Below are positions 2,370 to 10,981 of a DNA stretch of 34,862 nt, one piece after another. Every line of letters begins with the position of its first letter. Position 1 is the stretch's first letter. The translations under genes were made by a program, and so were the position numbers. This stretch comes from Christensenellales bacterium. GTDB lineage: Bacteria > Bacillota > Clostridia > Christensenellales > Aristaeellaceae. The notes below the pieces were generated by a model. That model saw only the letters and a list, made by a program, of their open reading frames with translations. It made no database searches and had not been told where the DNA came from. The stretch covers positions 1-34,862 of the forward strand of contig JBMNUA010000001.1 in the NCBI GenBank assembly GCA_050945995.1, given 5' to 3'.

Positions 2370-3569
2370 ATGGGAAAATGCTTGATCATCGGCTGCGGGG
2401 GCGTTGCGACCGTCGCGGCGCATAAGTGCTGCCAGAACAGCGCGGTATTTGATGAGATCATGATTGCGAGCCGCACGAAATCCAAGTGCGACGCGCTCAA
2501 GGCGAAACTCGACGGCGGGAAAACGCTGGTGCACACCGCGCAGGTGGACGCGGACAACGTGGGGGAGCTGGTCGCGCTCATCGAGCGGTTCAAGCCCGAT
2601 GTGGTGCTCAACCTCGCGCTGCCGTATCAGGATTTGAGCGTAATGGAAGCCTGCCTTGCCACGAAGACGCACTATATCGACACCGCGAACTACGAGCCGC
2701 CGGACACCGCGAAATTCGAGTACGGCTGGCAATGGGCGTACCGCGAGCGCTTCGAGCAGGCGGGCATCTGCGCGCTGCTCGGCAGCGGCTTCGACCCGGG
2801 CGTGACGGGCGTGTTCTCCGCCTACGCCCTCAAGCACCACTTTGACGAGATTCACGAAATCGATATCCTCGACGCGAACGGGGGCGACCACGGCTATCCC
2901 TTCGCAACGAACTTCAACCCCGAGATCAACATCCGCGAGGTGACGGCGAACGGCAGGTACTGGCAAAACGGGGAATGGGTGGAGACCGCGCCCATGGAGA
3001 TCAAGCGCGCGTATGACTTTGATCAGATCGGCGAGCGGGACATGTACCTTCTCTATCATGAGGAATTGGAGAGCTTGGCGAAACACATCAAGGGCATCCG
3101 GCGCATCCGCTTTTTCATGACATTCGGGCAGAGCTATCTGACGCATTTGAAGTGTCTGGAGAACGTGGGCATGACGTCGATCGAGCCGATAGAGTTTCAG
3201 GGAAAGCAGATCGTGCCGCTTCAGTTTTTGAAGGCGGTGCTGCCCGACCCGGCGAGCCTCGGGCCGCGCACCGTGGGCAAGACGAACATCGGCTGCATCT
3301 TCCGCGGCGTGAAGGACGGGAAGGAAAAGACGTATTACCTCTACAATGTGTGCGATCATCAGGCGTGCTACCGCGAGGTCGGCTCGCAGGCGATTTCGTA
3401 TACGACGGGCGTGCCCGCGATGATCGGCGCGATGCTCGTGATGAACGGCAAATGGAACAAGCCCGGCGTTTGGAACGTGGAGCAGTTTGACCCCGATCCG
3501 TTCATGGACGCATTGAATCAATGGGGACTTCCGTGGATTGAGGACTTCAATCCCGTGTTGGTGGACTGA
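2370..3569 (+). CDS. Saccharopine dehydrogenase-family carboxy(nor)spermidine dehydrogenase/synthase (CASDH/CANSDH-like)
   Basis: 399 aa. It has an N-terminal Rossmann motif (IIGCGGVA) and the length and overall look of CANSDH. It sits immediately upstream of nspC. An AGGAGGG ribosome-binding site is present. Confidence 0.8.
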   Translation: MGKCLIIGCGGVATVAAHKCCQNSAVFDEIMIASRTKSKCDALKAKLDGGKTLVHTAQVDADNVGELVALIERFKPDVVLNLALPYQDLSVMEACLATKTHYIDTANYEPPDTAKFEYGWQWAYRERFEQAGICALLGSGFDPGVTGVFSAYALKHHFDEIHEIDILDANGGDHGYPFATNFNPEINIREVTANGRYWQNGEWVETAPMEIKRAYDFDQIGERDMYLLYHEELESLAKHIKGIRRIRFFMTFGQSYLTHLKCLENVGMTSIEPIEFQGKQIVPLQFLKAVLPDPASLGPRTVGKTNIGCIFRGVKDGKEKTYYLYNVCDHQACYREVGSQAISYTTGVPAMIGAMLVMNGKWNKPGVWNVEQFDPDPFMDALNQWGLPWIEDFNPVLVD

Positions 3570-4708
3570 TGGAGCGGCTGATACAGGAGGTTTCCCGCGT
3601 TTCGACGCCCGCCTTCGTGGTGGATGAGGGGCGGATCGCGCACAACCTTGCGATACTCAAGCGCGTGGCGGAGGAAGCCGGCTGCAAGATACTGCTGGCG
3701 CAGAAGGCGTTTTCGATGTTCGCGCTCTATCCGCTGATCGCACTATCGCTTGCGGGCACGACGGCGAGCGGGCTGTATGAAGCGCGGCTCGGGCGCGAGG
3801 AGATGGGGGGAGAGTCGCACATCTTCTCCCCCGCGTACACGGACGCGGAGTTTGACGAGGTGCTCGCAATCTGCGATCACATCGTATTCAACTCGTTTGC
3901 GCAATGGGCGCAGTTTCGGGAGCGGGCGCGCGCGTCCGGGCGGAGCTTCGGCATCCGCATCAACCCCATGCACTCCACGCAGGCGCATGCGATTTATGAC
4001 CCCTGCGCGCCGCACTCGCATCTGGGCGTGACGCGCGAGCACTTTCGGGAGGATTTGCTCGACGGCATCGAGGGGCTGCACTTTCATACGCTGTGCGAGC
4101 AGGGCGCGGACGCGCTGATCGAGACGCTCGCGGCGGTCGAGCGGCAGTTTGGCGCGTTCCTCCCGCGGATGAAGTGGGTGAACTTCGGTGGCGGGCACCA
4201 CATCACGCGCCCGGGCTATGACGTTGACGCGCTGATCGAATGCGTGCGCGGGTTTCGGGCGCGCTATGGTGTGGAGGCATACCTCGAGCCGGGCGAGGCG
4301 GTGGCGCTCAACGCGGGATTTCTGGTGGCGCGCGTGATCGACATCGTCGAAAACGGCATGGAGATCGCCATCCTCGACACTTCCGCCACCTGCCATATGC
4401 CGGATGTGATCGAGATGCCGTACCGTCCGCCGCTGTTTGGCGCGGCGGCAGCGGGGGAGCGGGCGCATACCTACCGGCTCGCAGGTCCGACCTGCTTGGC
4501 GGGGGATGTGATCGGCGATTATTCGTTCGACCGCCCGCTTGCGCCGGGCGACAAGCTGGTATTTGAGGATATGGCGATCTATACGATGGTAAAAACGAAC
4601 ACCTTCAATGGAATGCGCCTGCCGTCGATCTACCTGCGCGGCGCGGATGGGGGATTGCGACTCGTGCGCGCGTTCGGGTACGAGGATTTCAAAAACAGGC
4701 TTTCGTGA
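3569..4708 (+). CDS. nspC: Carboxy(nor)spermidine decarboxylase (alanine racemase-fold PLP decarboxylase)
   Basis: 379 aa. It is N-terminally similar to NspC (TPAFV.DE..I..N). The start overlaps the upstream stop (TGATG), indicating translational coupling. Confidence 0.85.
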   Translation: MERLIQEVSRVSTPAFVVDEGRIAHNLAILKRVAEEAGCKILLAQKAFSMFALYPLIALSLAGTTASGLYEARLGREEMGGESHIFSPAYTDAEFDEVLAICDHIVFNSFAQWAQFRERARASGRSFGIRINPMHSTQAHAIYDPCAPHSHLGVTREHFREDLLDGIEGLHFHTLCEQGADALIETLAAVERQFGAFLPRMKWVNFGGGHHITRPGYDVDALIECVRGFRARYGVEAYLEPGEAVALNAGFLVARVIDIVENGMEIAILDTSATCHMPDVIEMPYRPPLFGAAAAGERAHTYRLAGPTCLAGDVIGDYSFDRPLAPGDKLVFEDMAIYTMVKTNTFNGMRLPSIYLRGADGGLRLVRAFGYEDFKNRLS

Positions 4709-4749
4709 ACGGTGCGCCCCGCGCGGATTGCGCGGGGCGCGTAGTTTCC
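4613..4749 (+). repeat. Direct repeat copy 1: the last 31 codons of nspC, its stop codon and its terminator hairpin
   Basis: It matches 5881-6018 with about six substitutions and a 1-nt indel, by direct visual alignment. Confidence 0.9.
4714..4749 (+). terminator. Intrinsic terminator of the polyamine operon
   Basis: Perfect 11-bp GC stem GCGCCCCGCGC-GGATT-GCGCGGGGCGC. The following T tract is weak (GTAGTTTCC). Confidence 0.65.
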
Positions 4750-4761
4750 ATAGAGAGAGGG

Positions 4762-5736
4762 TTACTTTTCGCAAAAGCGGACATAACTAGTAAATGATAT
4801 ATTGATGCCTAATTCTCTTGCGAGATCTGCGATTAAGCTGTCATCATCATTTGTGCTCCAACCGCCGCTCACGATGCTATTTATTTTATGATAGCCGGCG
4901 AGTATCGTTTCTTCATATAAATCATCAAAAATATCTGGGCGTTTAGATTTTAACACCTCTTGGCAATTTACTGGCAGGGCAGCTAATGTCTCCTTCGTTA
5001 CAAACCCTGTTGAAGTAATGAGTATGCCGCCCGGTTTTAATACCCGATACGTTTCTTTTAATGCATTTCCGATGTTACCTTCCGCATTCCCGATCCCGCC
5101 GCCATCTGACACGACATCGATGCTATTATCGGTAAAAGGAATATCGCAGAAATCAAAGACGGCATAGTGGATATTGGGAGAGTTTATTTTTCGATCTAAA
5201 AGATGTTTCCATTCGCGCACGACGGTTGGTGAAAGGTCGTTGATGATAATTGCTGCATCTGGGTTGGCATGTAAGATATACGGCATAAAACCGCCACCGG
5301 GACCGGCGCCAACTTCGAGGATCAGTCCACCCCGCTCCGCAATCTGTCTACCAATGCAACTTCTAACTGGATTTGCATGGTGGATACTGGCATCCCAATT
5401 TCGAGCGATCCTTTTTTCCGATACGATACTATTTGTCCATTCGGCGTTTTCCTTGTGCTCGTGTTCTGGTAGGAAATAGGCGATTTCATCCATTTTGTAT
5501 TGGCTATTCACTATTTTTTCGAAGAAGTTATTTCCCACCAGTAAATCATTGATAGACACATGAAACAAATCGGATAATTGGAGCAATGATTCAAGCTCCG
5601 GTAATGCTGTGCCGCATTCCCATTTCGACACCGCCTGTGAAGTCACCCCGAGTTTCTCCGCTAATGCATCTTGTGTTACATTCAAGCTCTTGCGAAATGA
5701 GGTGATTCGCTTCCCGAAATGGACTTTGTTTATCAT
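4762..5736 (-). CDS. XRE-family helix-turn-helix domain fused to a class I SAM-dependent methyltransferase domain
   Basis: 324 aa from the ATG at 5736 (MINKVHFGKR...), which is preceded by GGAGGAACTGGT. The longer ORF start at 5805 lacks a ribosome-binding site. The N-terminus (LNVTQDALAEKLGVTSQAVSKWECG) is an HTH_3/XRE motif. The centre (LILEVGAGPGGG, IIINDLSP, LKPGGILI) matches methyltransferase motifs I, II and post-II. The gene is visibly AT-rich compared with its flanks. Confidence 0.8.
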   Translation of the reverse strand: MINKVHFGKRITSFRKSLNVTQDALAEKLGVTSQAVSKWECGTALPELESLLQLSDLFHVSINDLLVGNNFFEKIVNSQYKMDEIAYFLPEHEHKENAEWTNSIVSEKRIARNWDASIHHANPVRSCIGRQIAERGGLILEVGAGPGGGFMPYILHANPDAAIIINDLSPTVVREWKHLLDRKINSPNIHYAVFDFCDIPFTDNSIDVVSDGGGIGNAEGNIGNALKETYRVLKPGGILITSTGFVTKETLAALPVNCQEVLKSKRPDIFDDLYEETILAGYHKINSIVSGGWSTNDDDSLIADLARELGINISFTSYVRFCEK

Positions 5737-5880
5737 ACCAGTTCCTCCATCTTGAGATTTCAGCATAATTATATAGCAAAAAAAGATAGTATGGAAGCGA
5801 TGCACAATATAGTTTGCGCAGATGAATTCTACTATGGGTTGGGTCGTAAAGACCTTAATGAAATATAACTTTGATAACGG

Positions 5881-6018
5881 ATGCGCCTGCCGTCGATCTA
5901 CCTGCGCGGCGCGGATGGGGGATTGCGGCTCGTGCGCTCGTTCGGGTACGAGGATTTCAAAAACAGGCTTTCATGATCGGCGCGCCCCGCGCGGATTGCG
6001 CGGGGCGCGTGGTTTTCC
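5881..6018 (+). repeat. Direct repeat copy 2: an orphan relic of the nspC 3' end (still reads MRLPSIYLRGADGGLRLVRSFGYEDFKNRLS*) plus a second copy of the terminator hairpin (5982-6008)
   Basis: It aligns with 4613-4749. It has no upstream nspC body, so it is a gene-end fragment or pseudogene. Confidence 0.9.
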
Positions 6019-6055
6019 CGGGAAAACATATCATAAGGCGATGGAATATGAAAGG

Positions 6056-6094
6056 TATAAAAAATTGTGTCCGGCAATGATACCGCACACAATT
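6056..6094 (-). terminator. Intrinsic terminator downstream of the tRNA-Thr/tRNA-Pro pair
   Basis: On the minus strand, AATTGTGT..CGG/CCG..ACACAATT forms a hairpin followed by TTTTTTATAC. It begins 3 nt after the tRNA-Pro CCA end. Confidence 0.6.
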
Positions 6095-6096
6095 TC

Positions 6097-6173
6097 TGGT
6101 CGAGGTGACAGGATTTGAACCTGCGACCTTTTGGTCCCGAACCAAACGCGCTACCAAACTGCGCTACACCTCG
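6097..6173 (-). tRNA. tRNA-Pro (anticodon CGG), CCA encoded
   Basis: The reverse complement folds by hand into a cloverleaf: CGAGGTG/CACCTCG acceptor, GCGC/GCGC D stem, TTGG(T)/CCAAA anticodon stem with loop TTCGGGA, GCAGG-TTCAAAT-CCTGT T arm. Length 77 nt. Confidence 0.95.
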
Positions 6174-6176
6174 AAA

Positions 6177-6252
6177 TGGAGCCAATGAAGGGACTCGAAC
6201 CCTTGACCTGCGGTTTACGAAACCGCTGCTCTGCCAGCTGAGCTACATTGGC
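6177..6252 (-). tRNA. tRNA-Thr (anticodon CGT), CCA encoded
   Basis: The reverse complement is GCCAATG-TA-GCTC-AGCTGGC-AGAGC-A-GCGGT-TTCGTAA-ACCGC-AGGTC-AAGGG-TTCGAGT-CCCTT-CATTGGC-T-CCA. Length 76 nt. Confidence 0.95.
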
Positions 6253-6428: not shown

Positions 6429-7490
6429 ATGAAGCGTATAGGCGTACTCACCTCCGGCGGCGACGCGCCCGGCATGAACGCGGCGATCCGCTCGGTGGTC
6501 AGAACGGGGATGGGTCTGGGCATGTCGGTGATCGGGTTCAAGCGCGGGTACAACGGATTGTTGATGCGCAGCGACAATGAGCGCGACGATTTTGAAATCC
6601 TCACGTCCCGCAGCGTTTCCGATAAGGTGCACCGCGGCGGCACGTTTTTGATGACGGCGCGCTGCGCGGAGTTCATCGATCCGATCTACCAAAAGCGCGC
6701 GGTCGAAAACCTGCGCGCGCTCGGCATCGAAGGGCTCGTCGTCATCGGCGGCGACGGCACCTACCGCGGCGCGCAGGATCTGTGCGCCCTTGGGTTTCCG
6801 GCGATTGGCATCCCCGGAACGATCGACAACGACCTGAATTATACGGATTATACCATCGGCTTTGACACCGCCGTCAACACCGCCTGCGACGCTGTGAACC
6901 GCATCCGCGATACGAGCGACTCGCACGAGCGCGTCAGCCTCATCACCGTAATGGGCAGAAACTGCGGCGACATCGCACTCTACACCGCCGCGGCGTGCGG
7001 CGCGGAGCTGTTTATGATCCCCGAAGAGCCGTGGAGCTTGGAGGATATCGCCGAGCGCGTCAAGTGGGGCGTGCTTCGCGGCAAGCGCTCGATGATGATG
7101 GTGTTCGCCGAGGGCGCGCTCAAATCGCTCACGAGCGATACTGCCGCCATCATCGCGGGCAACCCGAATTTGAGCGATATGAGCGTCCATCATCTCACCA
7201 GCTCGCAGATCGCGCAGATCATCGAGGAATTGTCCGGTCAGGAAACGCGCGCGACCGTGCTCGGCTACATCCAGCGCGGCGGCAGCCCCTCCGCGCGCGA
7301 TCGCGTGCTCGCGACAAGGCTCGGCGCGTATGCAACCCAGCTATTGCGCGATGACGAGGGCGGGTGCGCGGTGGGCGTGCGCGGCGAACGGATGATCCAT
7401 GTGCCGCTTGCGGATACGCAGAAGGGCGAGCAGATGGAGCTTGGCGAGCTCAATAAATTAATCGGCGTGATGTCCTCCATGGCGCAATGA
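6429..7490 (+). CDS. pfkA: ATP-dependent 6-phosphofructokinase
   Basis: 353 aa. Motifs include the N-terminal MKRIGVLTSGGDAPGMNAAIR, then GGDG(T/S)..GA and PGTIDND. An AGGAG ribosome-binding site is present. Confidence 0.93.
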   Translation: MKRIGVLTSGGDAPGMNAAIRSVVRTGMGLGMSVIGFKRGYNGLLMRSDNERDDFEILTSRSVSDKVHRGGTFLMTARCAEFIDPIYQKRAVENLRALGIEGLVVIGGDGTYRGAQDLCALGFPAIGIPGTIDNDLNYTDYTIGFDTAVNTACDAVNRIRDTSDSHERVSLITVMGRNCGDIALYTAAACGAELFMIPEEPWSLEDIAERVKWGVLRGKRSMMMVFAEGALKSLTSDTAAIIAGNPNLSDMSVHHLTSSQIAQIIEELSGQETRATVLGYIQRGGSPSARDRVLATRLGAYATQLLRDDEGGCAVGVRGERMIHVPLADTQKGEQMELGELNKLIGVMSSMAQ

Positions 7491-8776
7491 CGCAAACGAT
7501 CGACATCACAGGCATCGGCTCTGACATGCAGGGCGTGGGCAGGCTGGCGGACGAGCGCGCGGTGTTCGTCCCCGGCGCGCTGCCGGGCGAGCGCGTCACG
7601 GTGCGCATCACGCGCGATGCGGGCAGGTTTTGCGAGGCGGAGCTGACCAAAGTGCTCGCGCCGTCCGCGCATCGGATTGCGCCGAATTGCCCGCATGACG
7701 GGGCTTGCGGCGGCTGCCGGATTCGGCACGCCGCGTATGACCATACCCTCGAATTAAAACGCATGCGCGTGGTAGACGCGCTAACGCGCATCGCCGGCAT
7801 TGAATCGCCCGCGGTGCGCGAGACCATCGGCTGCGAAACCCCCGACCGCGCGCGCAACAAGGCGGAGTACCCCATCCGCAATGGCGTGATCGGCATGTTC
7901 GCGGCGGGCGGCGCGCGGCTCGTGCCGATTGAGGATTGCCTGCTGCAAAGCGCGCAGAGCGTCGCCATCATGCGGCGCGCCGCCGAACTCCTCAAGGGCT
8001 CGAATGTGTCGGGCTGGCTCGTCACGCGCACGAATGCGCAGGGCGACGGCATGGCGATATTGAGCGCACAGGGCAAGCCGCCCGCGTGGCTGGATCGGCT
8101 CGCGGAAATCCCCGGCGTGCGTTCTATATGGCATTGCGCGCTCAAGCCTCGACCGACGCATGCGCTCGACGGCGCGATGCACCATGTTTGCGGCGAGCGC
8201 ACCATCCGCGAGACGCTCTGCGGTCTGGATTTTGACATCTCCCCGCAGACCTTTTTTCAAGTGAATACTGCGCAGGCGGAAATTTTATATGAGCGCGCAC
8301 TGGATGCGGCGGGACTGACTGATGAAAGCCGCGTGCTCGACGCCTATTGCGGATGCGGCACGCTCACGCTCGCGGCGGCGAAATACGCTCAAAGCGCGCT
8401 CGGTGTGGAGATTGTCGCCCCGGCGATTTCGGACGCGCGCAAAAACGCCGCGCGCAACCGCCTTGACCATAAGACGCGCTTTGTCTGCGCCGATGCCGGC
8501 GCGGAGATCCCGCACCTCGTGCGCGCGGGCGAGATGTTCGACCGCGTGATCGTCGATCCGCCGCGCAAGGGATGCGATCCCGCGCTGATCGAAGCGCTTG
8601 GGCTTCTCAAGCCCGAACGCATCGCCTATGTCTCCTGCGATCCCGCCACGCTCGCGCGCGATGTCAAGCGGCTGCGCGCACATGGGTATGGTTTGGCTTG
8701 GGCGCAGCCGGTGGATATGTTCCCGTGGACGGGGCATGTGGAGTGTGTGGTGTTGATGTCGAGGGAGCGGTATTGA
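7487..8776 (+). CDS. rlmD: 23S rRNA (uracil-C5)-methyltransferase, RlmD/RumA family (TRAM domain, Fe-S cysteines, SAM methyltransferase)
   Basis: 429 aa. It has a TRAM-like N-terminus (GxG..FVPGALPGE.V), a Cys cluster (C..C.GC), the FFQVN motif, LDAYCG.G and a C-terminal VDPPR.G...YVSC. The ATGA overlaps the pfkA stop. Confidence 0.85.
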   Translation: MTQTIDITGIGSDMQGVGRLADERAVFVPGALPGERVTVRITRDAGRFCEAELTKVLAPSAHRIAPNCPHDGACGGCRIRHAAYDHTLELKRMRVVDALTRIAGIESPAVRETIGCETPDRARNKAEYPIRNGVIGMFAAGGARLVPIEDCLLQSAQSVAIMRRAAELLKGSNVSGWLVTRTNAQGDGMAILSAQGKPPAWLDRLAEIPGVRSIWHCALKPRPTHALDGAMHHVCGERTIRETLCGLDFDISPQTFFQVNTAQAEILYERALDAAGLTDESRVLDAYCGCGTLTLAAAKYAQSALGVEIVAPAISDARKNAARNRLDHKTRFVCADAGAEIPHLVRAGEMFDRVIVDPPRKGCDPALIEALGLLKPERIAYVSCDPATLARDVKRLRAHGYGLAWAQPVDMFPWTGHVECVVLMSRERY

Positions 8777-8968
8777 TTTTACTTGGATTGCACGACAACA
8801 GCTAAATTATCTACTCGACCTAGCGTGTGTCTCTGCGTTTAAGTAAAATGTCGATTGAATCCATCCTAACCGCGCAAGCGGCTTAGCGGTCGAAATGAAC
8901 ATTCGCAAGATTGTGTGAACAGAGCATATATCAAGCTTCTGGGCAAACCGTCATTTGGAGGAGCGAAT

Positions 8969-9490
8969 ATGAGTACACGGATAAAACTTGCCGAAACGGC
9001 GAAGGAAAAAGCACGATTACCTTTCCATGGTTTTATAGAAGGAAAAGAGTCAAATATTCAACCGATAGTCAGCCTCTTTCCGAAATGGAACATACAAAGC
9101 GCCGATAGAATGTGGTGTGCTGGATTTGTTTATTATTGCTGTATTGAAGCAGGTTTTAAGATACCATACAGTCCGAAAGGCTGTGTATCGTGCAGTCTTG
9201 CCGGATGCGGTGGTTGGGAAGAATTTGCGCTGAAAGATAGTAGAATTGAATATCATCCACGAAGTGATCATGATTTTACCCCTGCGGCTGGTGACATTGT
9301 TCTTTACGACCATGTCTTTATAAATCGCGAACATGACCATATCGGAATCGTACTGGAAGATAAAACTGATTCTATTATTGTAGCAGAAGGAAACACATAT
9401 AATGATAATATTTCACGAATTCTTGAGCGTAAGAAGAATGAACATATCCGGGCGTATATCCGCATACCAAATGGTTACTCCCAGGACTAA
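8969..9490 (+). CDS. CHAP-domain (cysteine/histidine-dependent amidohydrolase/peptidase) protein with no signal peptide
   Basis: 173 aa from the ATG at 8969, which is preceded by GGAGGAGCGAAT. The candidate catalytic Cys lies in MWCAGFVYYC, the His in HDHIGIVLE, and AEGN follows. The N-terminus is hydrophilic. The gene is AT-rich. Confidence 0.75.
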   Translation: MSTRIKLAETAKEKARLPFHGFIEGKESNIQPIVSLFPKWNIQSADRMWCAGFVYYCCIEAGFKIPYSPKGCVSCSLAGCGGWEEFALKDSRIEYHPRSDHDFTPAAGDIVLYDHVFINREHDHIGIVLEDKTDSIIVAEGNTYNDNISRILERKKNEHIRAYIRIPNGYSQD

Positions 9491-9597
9491 GATATGATTT
9501 ATTAAAACATCAATCTGACGGTCTCATTTTATGTGGAGTGTAAAGTGTTGAGGTGGACAGCTGAATCACAAGTATTCTGTAAAAGGAGATCACCGAA

Positions 9598-10437
9598 ATG
9601 ATGATTGAGAGATACTACGGCATATCACCTGACATCGTGCAGCAGTTGATCGCCGCAACTAAGAACAAAGTAAATGATAGAAGCGGAGACAACCGATTCA
9701 AATCAACAAAGGTATTTTTATTTGACGAGTATGCTGTGCTAAGCATGCAGAACATGGATGTGCGAAATGTCGAGGTAAAGGATGTGGATTACAAGCATCT
9801 CGGGCGGTTATGCGAAACACTACTCGATTTACATACACAAGGAGTTCACGTTTTGCCCATACGCGCATTCCAAAGTGAGAACGGAAGCGGCTACATGGTG
9901 CAGCAACGGGCGAAAGGCGCGGAATTATATGAAAGAGACAAGTTGCTCGACAAACATTATATCTTAGGGCACGTCGCGCTTTTATCAAACGCGCCGCAAG
10001 CGTACTATGATAAGTTTGTCGCCGATGCCATAGCGATTATGGAAAAAGGCGTGCTTATCGACTTTGTGGGAAAAGACAATTTCTTTTATCACGAAGAGAT
10101 CGGCTTTCAGTTCATTGACCTTTATGCACACAACGATTATGTATACGGATTAACCGACATTAAACCGAATATCAAACAATTGGCGGCGCGCAACTGTTTC
10201 ATACCATGCTATTTTGATGCTGTGCCGACGCATCGCGACACGGTATCGAACGTGCTGTCCGAGCTTACGGAATGCGAGTGGAAATTATTGAAACAGCAGA
10301 ACGCGACCATATTTACTAAGTGCAAAACAGCATTGATCAAAAACGGCGTAGCGGAAAAAATGATCGATAAAATCATTTCGGATGATGGATTTATCCCACA
10401 GAAACATCAATTGGGATTGGATCGGAATCATTCATAA
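9598..10437 (+). CDS. Hypothetical protein with weak protein-kinase-like/phosphotransferase-like motifs
   Basis: 279 aa. An AAGGAG ribosome-binding site lies 9 nt upstream. The gene is AT-rich. GYMVQQRAKGAEL is hinge-like, LIDFVGKDNFFY is catalytic-loop-like and FQFIDLY is DFG-like, but no clear Gly-rich loop is present. Function is unassigned. Confidence 0.6.
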   Translation: MMIERYYGISPDIVQQLIAATKNKVNDRSGDNRFKSTKVFLFDEYAVLSMQNMDVRNVEVKDVDYKHLGRLCETLLDLHTQGVHVLPIRAFQSENGSGYMVQQRAKGAELYERDKLLDKHYILGHVALLSNAPQAYYDKFVADAIAIMEKGVLIDFVGKDNFFYHEEIGFQFIDLYAHNDYVYGLTDIKPNIKQLAARNCFIPCYFDAVPTHRDTVSNVLSELTECEWKLLKQQNATIFTKCKTALIKNGVAEKMIDKIISDDGFIPQKHQLGLDRNHS

Positions 10438-10582
10438 AAGGATGCACTTCCTCAATTAAAACCGTAGATCCGCCGACGATCCGGTAGCAGTTCATGATCA
10501 TGTTTCACCCTCATGTCCGCCACGACCCGATCCAAAGCCTGCTCCCGCTCCAATGACGCCAAATCATCATCCGTCCCTGCCA

Positions 10583-10631: not shown

Positions 10632-10981
10632 TGGTGGAGGTGCGGGGAGTTGAACCCCGGTCCGAAAGCCAGACGGCAAGAGCTTCTCCGAGCGCATTCC
10701 ATTATTTTACATTCCCTCTGCCGCACCGCAATGGACAGCGTTACGGGTTCAGTAGCTTCATAAAATCCCACCCGCCGCAAAGCTTACGCGGGCTGGTTCC
10801 CTGCTTTTGCAGCGCCGATTGCCTACGCCGCAGGAGGCTTAGGGTCGACGTTCGCGGACTAAGCCGCGAAAGCTACGTTTTCGTAGTTGTCAGTTCAATT
10901 ATTGTTCCCGTTGTCAGGCGGTACAGGGCCGCCGCTCGCTACTCCAGCAATCCGAACCCCCGTCGAAACCAGTACACCCCC
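10632..10981 (-). ncRNA. ssrA: tmRNA (SsrA)
   Basis: The reverse complement starts GGGGGTGTACTGGTTTCGACGGGG and ends GGACCGGGGTTCAACTCCCCGCACCTCCACCA. The acceptor GGGGGTG/CACCTCC includes the G3:U pair. The internal tag frame reads ...GAC AAC TAC GAA AAC GTA GCT TTC GCG GCT TAG (DNYENVAFAA*). It lies directly downstream of smpB. Confidence 0.95.

Follow-up and report, generated by a model that had tools for sequence, protein, structure and literature searches.

Integration of the element e14 and of phage 21 into the icd gene of Escherichia coli K-12 was reportedly described by Hill, Gray and Brody in 1989. At this site e14 leaves a 163-bp pseudo-icd' (icdC) (PMC6379469; PMC13626634). Integrase-less elements flanked by attachment (att) sites, the cis-mobilizable elements (CIMEs), are common at gene 3' ends in Firmicutes, where they measure 1.2-13 kb (PMC7563491; PMC5704250), and their streptococcal sites include the 3' ends of fda, rpsI, rpmG, rplL, and tRNA-Lys (PMC5704250; PMC7563491). 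Here we analyze a locus in a 34,862-nt stretch of DNA from a Christensenellales bacterium (contig JBMNUA010000001.1; the whole stretch is hereafter called the window), in which a single foreign gene, here called the cargo gene, lies between two copies of the nspC 3' end, nspC being the terminal gene of a polyamine operon. The locus is ordinary in kind, a small integrase-less islet bracketed by a duplicated gene tail, and its most interesting aspects are the question of the mechanism that made it and its polymorphism in the population.

The likeness to e14 at icd lies in an insertion within the 3' portion of a gene for a housekeeping enzyme, in a near-identical proximal tail that keeps this gene intact, and in a displaced distal pseudo-tail; the two tails differ by few, mostly conservative changes, and recombination between them would yield a chimeric but functional gene. 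However, e14 is a 15-kb prophage with an integrase and SOS-induced excision, whereas the nspC locus comprises 1.13 kb and one gene and gave no sign of either, and the nspC repeat takes in the whole terminator, unlike that of e14/icd. With CIMEs it shares an integrase-less cargo between direct repeats at a gene 3' end, these elements being known in sizes down to 1.2 kb: the nspC islet has no integration or transfer genes, consists of flanking repeats and one cargo gene, and falls in the CIME size range of 1.2-13 kb (1,131 bp between the repeats; 1.27 kb with one repeat counted). However, CIMEs are recognised by related integrative and conjugative or integrative and mobilizable elements (ICEs and IMEs) that share the att site, often in tandem, and none was found for nspC. 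Islands at the 3' ends of tRNA and transfer-messenger RNA (tmRNA) genes are also similar in being islets of foreign composition beside RNA genes, with a block of identity running from the crossover to the 3' end of the target, but the target at nspC is protein-coding, and the neighbouring tRNA-Pro and tRNA-Thr are intact, unduplicated, and convergent.

Duplicated nspC tails around a foreign gene

A repeat finder detected a 135-nt direct repeat with 96% identity at 4613-4747 and 5881-6015. Chance could be excluded as its origin, since the next-longest direct repeat within 5 kb measured 27 nt with at most 81% identity. Pairwise alignment with MAFFT extended the pair to 4613-4749 and 5881-6018, with six substitutions (at 4660, 4670, 4705, 4709, 4713, and 4743 of copy A) and one T indel; identity began sharply at 4613/5881 and stopped at ...GT(A/G)GTTT(T)CC. 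Position 4613 is base 1 of codon 349 of the 379-codon nspC gene. Copy B is preceded by an in-frame TAA at 5875-5877, and its translation departs from that of copy A in one of the 31 residues (Ala to Ser), two further changes being synonymous. The Ala/Ser difference was considered as a pointer to the native copy and rejected, because this position varies among homologs. The hairpin of copy A folded with -35.0 kcal/mol (z -4.56) and that of copy B with -35.8 kcal/mol (z -3.71), and a terminator scan flagged this same copy B hairpin. The sequence-only reading of this DNA had claimed precisely this pair of repeats with six substitutions and one indel, an intact C-terminal peptide in copy B with one Ala to Ser and two synonymous changes, and a terminator hairpin retained there; repeat finding, alignment, translation, and folding bore out all of these.

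The DNA between the copies is of foreign origin. Its GC content was 0.425 vs 0.596 for the whole window, and the GC content at third codon positions (GC3) of the cargo gene was 0.43 vs 0.70-0.86 for native genes, so that the AT-rich ~1.13 kb with a single minus-strand gene, also claimed beforehand, was recovered by measurement. The upstream regions of three homologs of the cargo gene (L081, L084, and L087, each at 7840-8000) had ACAAC-N6-GTTGT and GTCGCTTCTTTTTT motifs in common, the former being an inverted repeat located ~90 nt before the start codon in genes of the cargo family. Positions 5737-5880 of the window retain the TCGCTTC...TTTTTTT part of these upstream motifs, which indicated that the cargo gene came with its own control region. 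The ACAAC-N6-GTTGT repeat and the GTCGCTTCTTTTTT box are candidate operator/promoter elements for autoregulation by the helix-turn-helix (HTH) domain of the cargo protein.

A homology search with NspC in 5.8 billion proteins returned none above 76% identity (best 74-76%), and exact-protein look-ups for NspC and the cargo protein gave no identical entry. Because no close relative was present in genome or protein collections, evidence from strains was taken from Logan contigs of public sequencing runs (X-numbered), which derived from bioreactor, manure, landfill, sludge, and biogas samples of different studies, X1 being a source-like run. Eight metagenomes besides that of the window yielded contigs spanning at least one junction. 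Contigs in X2, X3, X4, and X9 spanned the left junction, contigs in X4, X5, X26, and X37 spanned the right junction (5880/5881), and the join between copy B and the tRNA flank was present in X1, X2, and X9. In X1, the cargo contig (4675-5910) had a depth of 15.1x, the flank 13.2x, and the collapsed repeat contig 20.1x; the similar depths of cargo and flank indicated that the insert is single-copy. Scans of metagenome contigs with the tRNA terminator and with the repeat core were both empty. The window is itself a metagenome-type contig, in which repeats can produce misjoins of copy B or the cargo, and an artefactual second copy had been named beforehand as grounds for refuting an insertion. 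However, all three junctions were spanned in independent runs that carry the two-copy layout, the depths in X1 were those just given, and copies A and B hold distinct, haplotype-consistent variants. An artefact is effectively refuted by the junction-spanning contigs, and we regard its probability as negligible. The features of the locus are listed in Table 1.

Table 1. Features of the nspC locus and of the adjacent tRNA operon (window coordinates).
Feature	Position	Strand	Remarks
nspC (carboxynorspermidine decarboxylase, 379 aa)	3569..4708	+	Pfam PF00278; GC3 0.81
Repeat copy A	4611..4749	+	nspC codons 349-379, stop, and terminator; in frame, nspC left whole
Copy A terminator hairpin	4713..4741	+	12-bp GC stem, 5-nt loop, then weak T tract (TAGTTTCC)
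Foreign insert	4750..5880		1,131 bp, GC 0.425
Cargo gene, 324 aa	4762-5736	-	ATG at 5736, GGAGG 7 nt upstream
Cargo 5' control region	5737..5880	-	GGAGG ribosome-binding site, TATAAT box, family-typical TCGCTTC...TTTTTTT motif
Repeat copy B	5879..6018	+	Displaced nspC-tail duplicate: 31-codon pseudogene fragment and orphan terminator
Copy B terminator hairpin	5980..6010	+	13-bp stem, then TGGTTTTCCC
Convergent tRNA operon terminator	6061..6092	-	Fold -20.6 kcal/mol, z -6.2, then UUUUUU
tRNA-Pro(CGG)	6097-6173	-	ARAGORN, Rfam; 79 nt past copy B
tRNA-Thr(CGT)	6177-6252	-	ARAGORN, Rfam
tRNA operon promoter	6306-6277	-	Promoter scan, 11/12 positions match

Age of the duplication and polymorphism among strains

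Runs X2, X3, and X9 shared a second haplotype (type II) that holds both copies. The four repeat sequences (copies A and B in both haplotypes) were rebuilt and compared by parsimony, and only three sites separated A from B in both haplotypes: 4612 (A vs G), the Ala/Ser site 4670 (G vs T), and 4705 (G vs A or T). The remaining differences were private to one copy in one haplotype, including those at 4660, 4709, and 4743 and the indel of the window. These results indicated that the copies were almost identical when they were made and that the duplication predates the split of the haplotypes, at which point no more than 2-3 sites distinguished the copies; by this comparison it is old and has been inherited in at least two of them. 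Strain X8 has a G at 4612, from which the ancestral repeat probably started at 4611/5879 and was 139 nt long.

Divergence between the haplotypes was uneven, reaching 1.9-3.6% in nspC, 2.5% in the 3' third of the cargo gene, at most 0.45% from 5090 to ~5945, and ~7% in 5946-6060, with the non-coding parts of the terminators having diverged by 7-20% since the split. As judged from these values, the mosaic is typical of homologous exchange between strains. Purifying selection on copy B, in which nearly all changes are synonymous, was considered and rejected, because the low-divergence tract from 5090 to ~5945 explains the pattern; in the divergent part only two changes remain.

The cargo gene is dispensable, its presence is polymorphic within the species, and it is decaying in some strains. 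In X8, both flanks were covered at ~3-11x with 96-99% identity and depth was about zero over 4695-6059, which indicated that a strain exists without the cargo and without copy B; the nspC contig of this run ends at 4708, before the GC hairpin, and so does not reach the junction. In X25, where flank coverage was thin, a contig with the tail and the hairpin tracks the copy B flank to 6025 and then diverges, and no cargo contigs were found. X4 and X10 showed complementary breakpoints at 4983-4986 within the cargo gene, with loose ends that are mutually inverted (GGCGATACCGCATAAAGG... and GGCAATACCGCACAAATC): the X4 contig runs through 4931-4986 and then into GGCGATACCGCATAAAGGGG..., and the X10 contig runs from ...GATTTGTGCGGTATTGCC into 4983-5115, leaving a 4-bp overlap. 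The inverted loose ends and this overlap pointed to an insertion sequence (IS) or a miniature inverted-repeat transposable element that entered the cargo gene of these landfill strains and duplicated 4 bp of the target. In X9, nearly all flank bins were covered and ~4907-5744 was missing; one contig joins 26 unrelated bases to 5745 (TGGGGGCTTGACTTTTAATAGTTAGT directly before 5745), and TGGGGGCTTGAC... is followed by 5745-5858. An empty-site comparison with the nearest species found no nspC-tRNA synteny there.

A 455-nt contig of X8 with unrelated sequence to the left of 6048 was initially taken as an alternative allele and was withdrawn, because X1 carries the same sequence at 11x beside the form of the window. 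This sequence, ending in ...TTGCGTAT(A/G)GAATGTTGCGGATCGAC, continues from 6048 into the tRNA terminator and tRNA-Pro, at 11x in X1 and at 4.8x in X8; its probable source is a second locus, or a related genome, with the same tRNA terminator.

Origin of the insertion

The best reading of the locus, which we hold tentatively and with slightly less than even confidence, is that of a CIME-like relic of an integration of the e14/icd type. Positions 4750-5880 are a foreign promoter-plus-gene unit that was inserted a single time at the nspC 3' end, with duplication of 139 bp of the target; it would have been acquired horizontally from a lower-GC lineage of Clostridia, in the ancestor of several strains of an uncultured Clostridia species with ~60% GC. 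Copy A keeps nspC complete and terminated, and copy B represents the displaced tail and an orphan terminator beside the native convergent tRNA operon. The insertion would most likely have been made by a site-specific recombinase belonging to an integrative element with a replacement nspC tail in its attP, in the manner of e14 and phage 21 at icd, and all of the element except the one cargo gene would later have been lost, giving the relic. The locus, which has been inherited and also exchanged by homologous recombination among strains, appears to be immobile now, and the cargo gene would be transcribed from its own predicted promoter in the direction of the nspC hairpin, convergently with nspC.

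This reading is favored on the basis of topology and of literature precedents, namely e14 at icd and the small CIMEs, and it is from these that we infer that the repeats may once have been att sites and that an integrase may once have existed. The target 3' end is duplicated around the insert, the gene is intact, and the insert is foreign in composition, as at att sites; the repeats begin inside the target open reading frame (ORF) and end at the end of the terminator, and a whole gene borders the insert on one side and a pseudo-tail on the other. Integrases tend to target conserved sequences, and the start of the repeat just after the conserved NTFNG motif of NspC would fit this preference. 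A simple transposition left none of its marks, there being no inverted repeats at 4750 and 5880, no transposase, and a duplication of 139 bp and not of 2-14 bp.

A series of results weighs against this reading. No recombinase, transposase, or integrase was found by Pfam scans among the identifiable genes of the window. A second nspC tail within 6 kb was found in 0 of 80 related species, an attP-like nspC tail in none of the viral contigs, and a related intact or partner ICE or IME using nspC in none of the genome, viral, and metagenome scans. The insert contains no pseudogene debris and no space for anything besides a promoter and a gene; 12 nt lie between copy A and the cargo stop and 144 nt between copy B and the ATG, so that any decay must have been very neat. 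The ancestral copies were near-identical even in the fast-evolving non-coding terminator, which is equally expected from an in-place duplication. Moreover, a contig of X37 matches 5848-5881 exactly and then continues, within 3 nt of the repeat boundary, into unrelated low-GC sequence (GGTACTGTCAAG...; GGTACTGTCAAGTGTTATGCGCAAATTCGT following 5881), which gave no match in local sequence collections. This evidence consists of a single 2.4x contig from an RNA-seq library; if real, it fits the attP model poorly, because an attP would hold the element arm and the repeat side by side. Finally, from the sequences compared the cargo family appears not to be linked to mobile elements elsewhere. In C. 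thermosuccinogenes and two metagenome-assembled genomes the gene is solitary, in unrelated neighbourhoods, with a GC content equal to that of the host (0.37-0.51) and without flanking repeats or integrase, and the full-length HTH-methyltransferase architecture was absent from the plasmid and phage collections searched. These ordinary chromosomal contexts, with native GC and no flanking repeats, are unlike the cargo locus, and led to the rejection of the idea that the family is generally repeat-flanked or borne by mobile elements.

Integration of the attL/attR type, as proposed by the sequence-only reading, was thus partly sustained: the topology, the foreign DNA, and the X8 polymorphism agree with it, and the absence of integrase and transposase which that reading reported was borne out, but no positive att evidence, excision product, attP, or partner element was found. 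In X1, no excision or empty-site joint was found at 96% likeness, a weak test, as the contigs drop rare variants and break inside the repeat. Four viral contigs had an nspC C-terminus; three of these hold whole host operons, and the fourth (L090:5371-6240, from IMGVR_UViG_3300029437_000098) is a fusion in which a siphovirus tail ORF runs in frame and without a stop into NspC ~283-379. This orphan nspC tail was considered as att evidence at a prophage end and rejected, because the junction lies inside the tail-protein ORF; L090 is either a truncated prophage fused by deletion to a truncated nspC or an assembly chimera. Its tail module comprises the tape measure, Dit, Tal, and a minor tail protein, with a host-like gene after the NspC part.

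The same results bear on a duplicative insertion without a recombinase, in which the 139-bp duplicate would have been made in place during the capture of a foreign fragment. Three routes would lead to it: replication could stall at the very stable terminator hairpin, switch template to foreign DNA, and resume 139 nt upstream; a circular molecule with a conspecific nspC tail could enter by a Campbell-type single crossover; or homology-facilitated illegitimate recombination could take place from a sister strain. Such an event would account for a minimal promoter-plus-gene insert with no element remaining and no recombinase nearby, for the right edge of the duplication at the end of a -35 kcal/mol hairpin, and for ancestral copies that were near-identical including non-coding DNA which differs by 7-20% between haplotypes. 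It would agree as well with the finding that 80 species and the viral contigs gave no sign of nspC as a recurrent target, and with the X37 contig, which diverges within 3 nt of 5880/5881 into low-GC DNA as a donor context would. However, events of this kind are rare in bacteria and poorly documented there, whereas integrase relics abound; the junctions 5880/5881 and 4749/4750 show no evident microhomology; and X37, as one low-depth RNA-seq contig, could be a chimera or an IS junction. Given the lack of att evidence, the debris-free insert, the near-identical copies, the coincidence with the hairpin edge, and X37, insertion independent of a recombinase is nearly as likely as the integrase relic, a possibility to be taken seriously although we do not expect it to hold. 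Recombination with foreign DNA carrying a homologue of the nspC tail, offered as an alternative by the sequence-only reading, may also have produced the arrangement. The 137-nt segment upstream of the cargo gene abuts unrelated sequence on the left in X9 and on the right in X37, and the joins at 5745 in X9 and at 5881 in X37 could be donor context, IS junctions, or chimeras.

Further alternatives received less credit. Capture of ~1.1 kb at a stalled fork, with X37 as the donor context, or a one-gene cassette moved in trans by an unlinked integrase via the 139-bp att-like repeats, is doubtful. A tandem duplication ending at the nspC terminator, later overwritten by foreign DNA except for 139 bp, explains why a truncated second tail with a native right flank follows an intact gene; nevertheless it requires two events, the foreign left edge must coincide exactly with the end of the duplication unit at 4749/4750, and no intermediate was present in any strain examined, which makes this origin very unlikely.

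Cargo protein, neighboring genes, and significance

In the cargo protein an XRE-type HTH domain (residues 14-65) is connected through a helical linker to a class I S-adenosylmethionine (SAM) methyltransferase domain (~residues 120-324), with Pfam matches to HTH_3 (2e-11), Methyltransf_11 (1.5e-12), and also Methyltransf_25. In an alignment with 33 homologs the SAM-loop residues E141-G143-G145-P146-G147-G148-G149 were invariant. An AlphaFold model of the protein, made with the 33 homologs, reached a confidence (pLDDT) of 86, and its best Foldseek matches were RebM, MccD, TleD, MitM, and PfPMT (phosphoethanolamine methyltransferase). In this model the predicted catalytic half resembles small-molecule/natural-product methyltransferases and not DNA methyltransferases. 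Searches with the cargo sequence in NCBIfam, PADLOC, and the PDB gave domain-level matches only. The family contains more than 1000 homologs of ~324 aa, the closest being 67% identical to the cargo protein. It corresponds to the XRE-HTH/class I SAM methyltransferase fusions of Clostridia (for example C. thermosuccinogenes CDQ84_16575, P0006); the cargo protein is 58-67% identical to the members listed and matches them in length, domains, and invariant motifs, and no characterised member of this family is apparent. A 31-nt stretch of the cargo gene (5030-5060, the KETYRVLKPGG region) was identical in commoner, otherwise unrelated contigs of X1, X3, X4, X10, and X25; these have the same foreign flanks on both sides and probably represent another methyltransferase gene with that motif.

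Homologs of NspC at 70-76% identity carry the name carboxynorspermidine decarboxylase, and nspC is preceded in the operon by speE (668-1522), an agmatinase gene (1515-2357), and CANSDH (2370-3569). On the other side, the tRNAs lie on the minus strand with their own promoter and terminator, from which the native layout consisted of nspC and the tRNA operon converging. The distance of ~80 bp between the site and the tRNA-Pro/tRNA-Thr pair that had been pointed out beforehand was confirmed; its relevance was not, since the insertion sits in nspC and not in a tRNA, which makes the proximity incidental.

The window also contains a low-GC island (8800-10440, GC 0.39-0.46) flanked by a TRAM/U5-methyltransferase gene (7487-8776) and by the 3' end of a minus-strand tmRNA gene (10632-10981). 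Two proteins are encoded in the island, one with a CHAP domain (8915-9490, GC3 0.33) and one of 279 aa (9598-10437) that gave no Pfam or PADLOC match. It was considered as a similarly bracketed islet and rejected, as it has no bracketing repeat and no integrase. Tags of tmRNAs usually end in -LAA or -VAA; the one predicted here by ARAGORN, GAAKAGNQPA*, does not; its reading frame may have been set wrongly, or the tag may be unusual.

If the att reading is true, nspC would join the protein-gene 3' ends that are used as attachment sites in Clostridia, and the locus would be a very small single-gene relic of the CIME type and a marker for seeking the intact element. If insertion took place independently of a recombinase, the locus would provide a clean natural case of a foreign gene gained without mobile machinery and with the target preserved, which would be of interest to models of gene gain. 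Under either reading, the locus documents presence/absence and decay polymorphism in an uncultured Clostridia species of anaerobic digesters and landfills, and it marks a widespread, uncharacterised HTH-methyltransferase family as a transferable accessory function.

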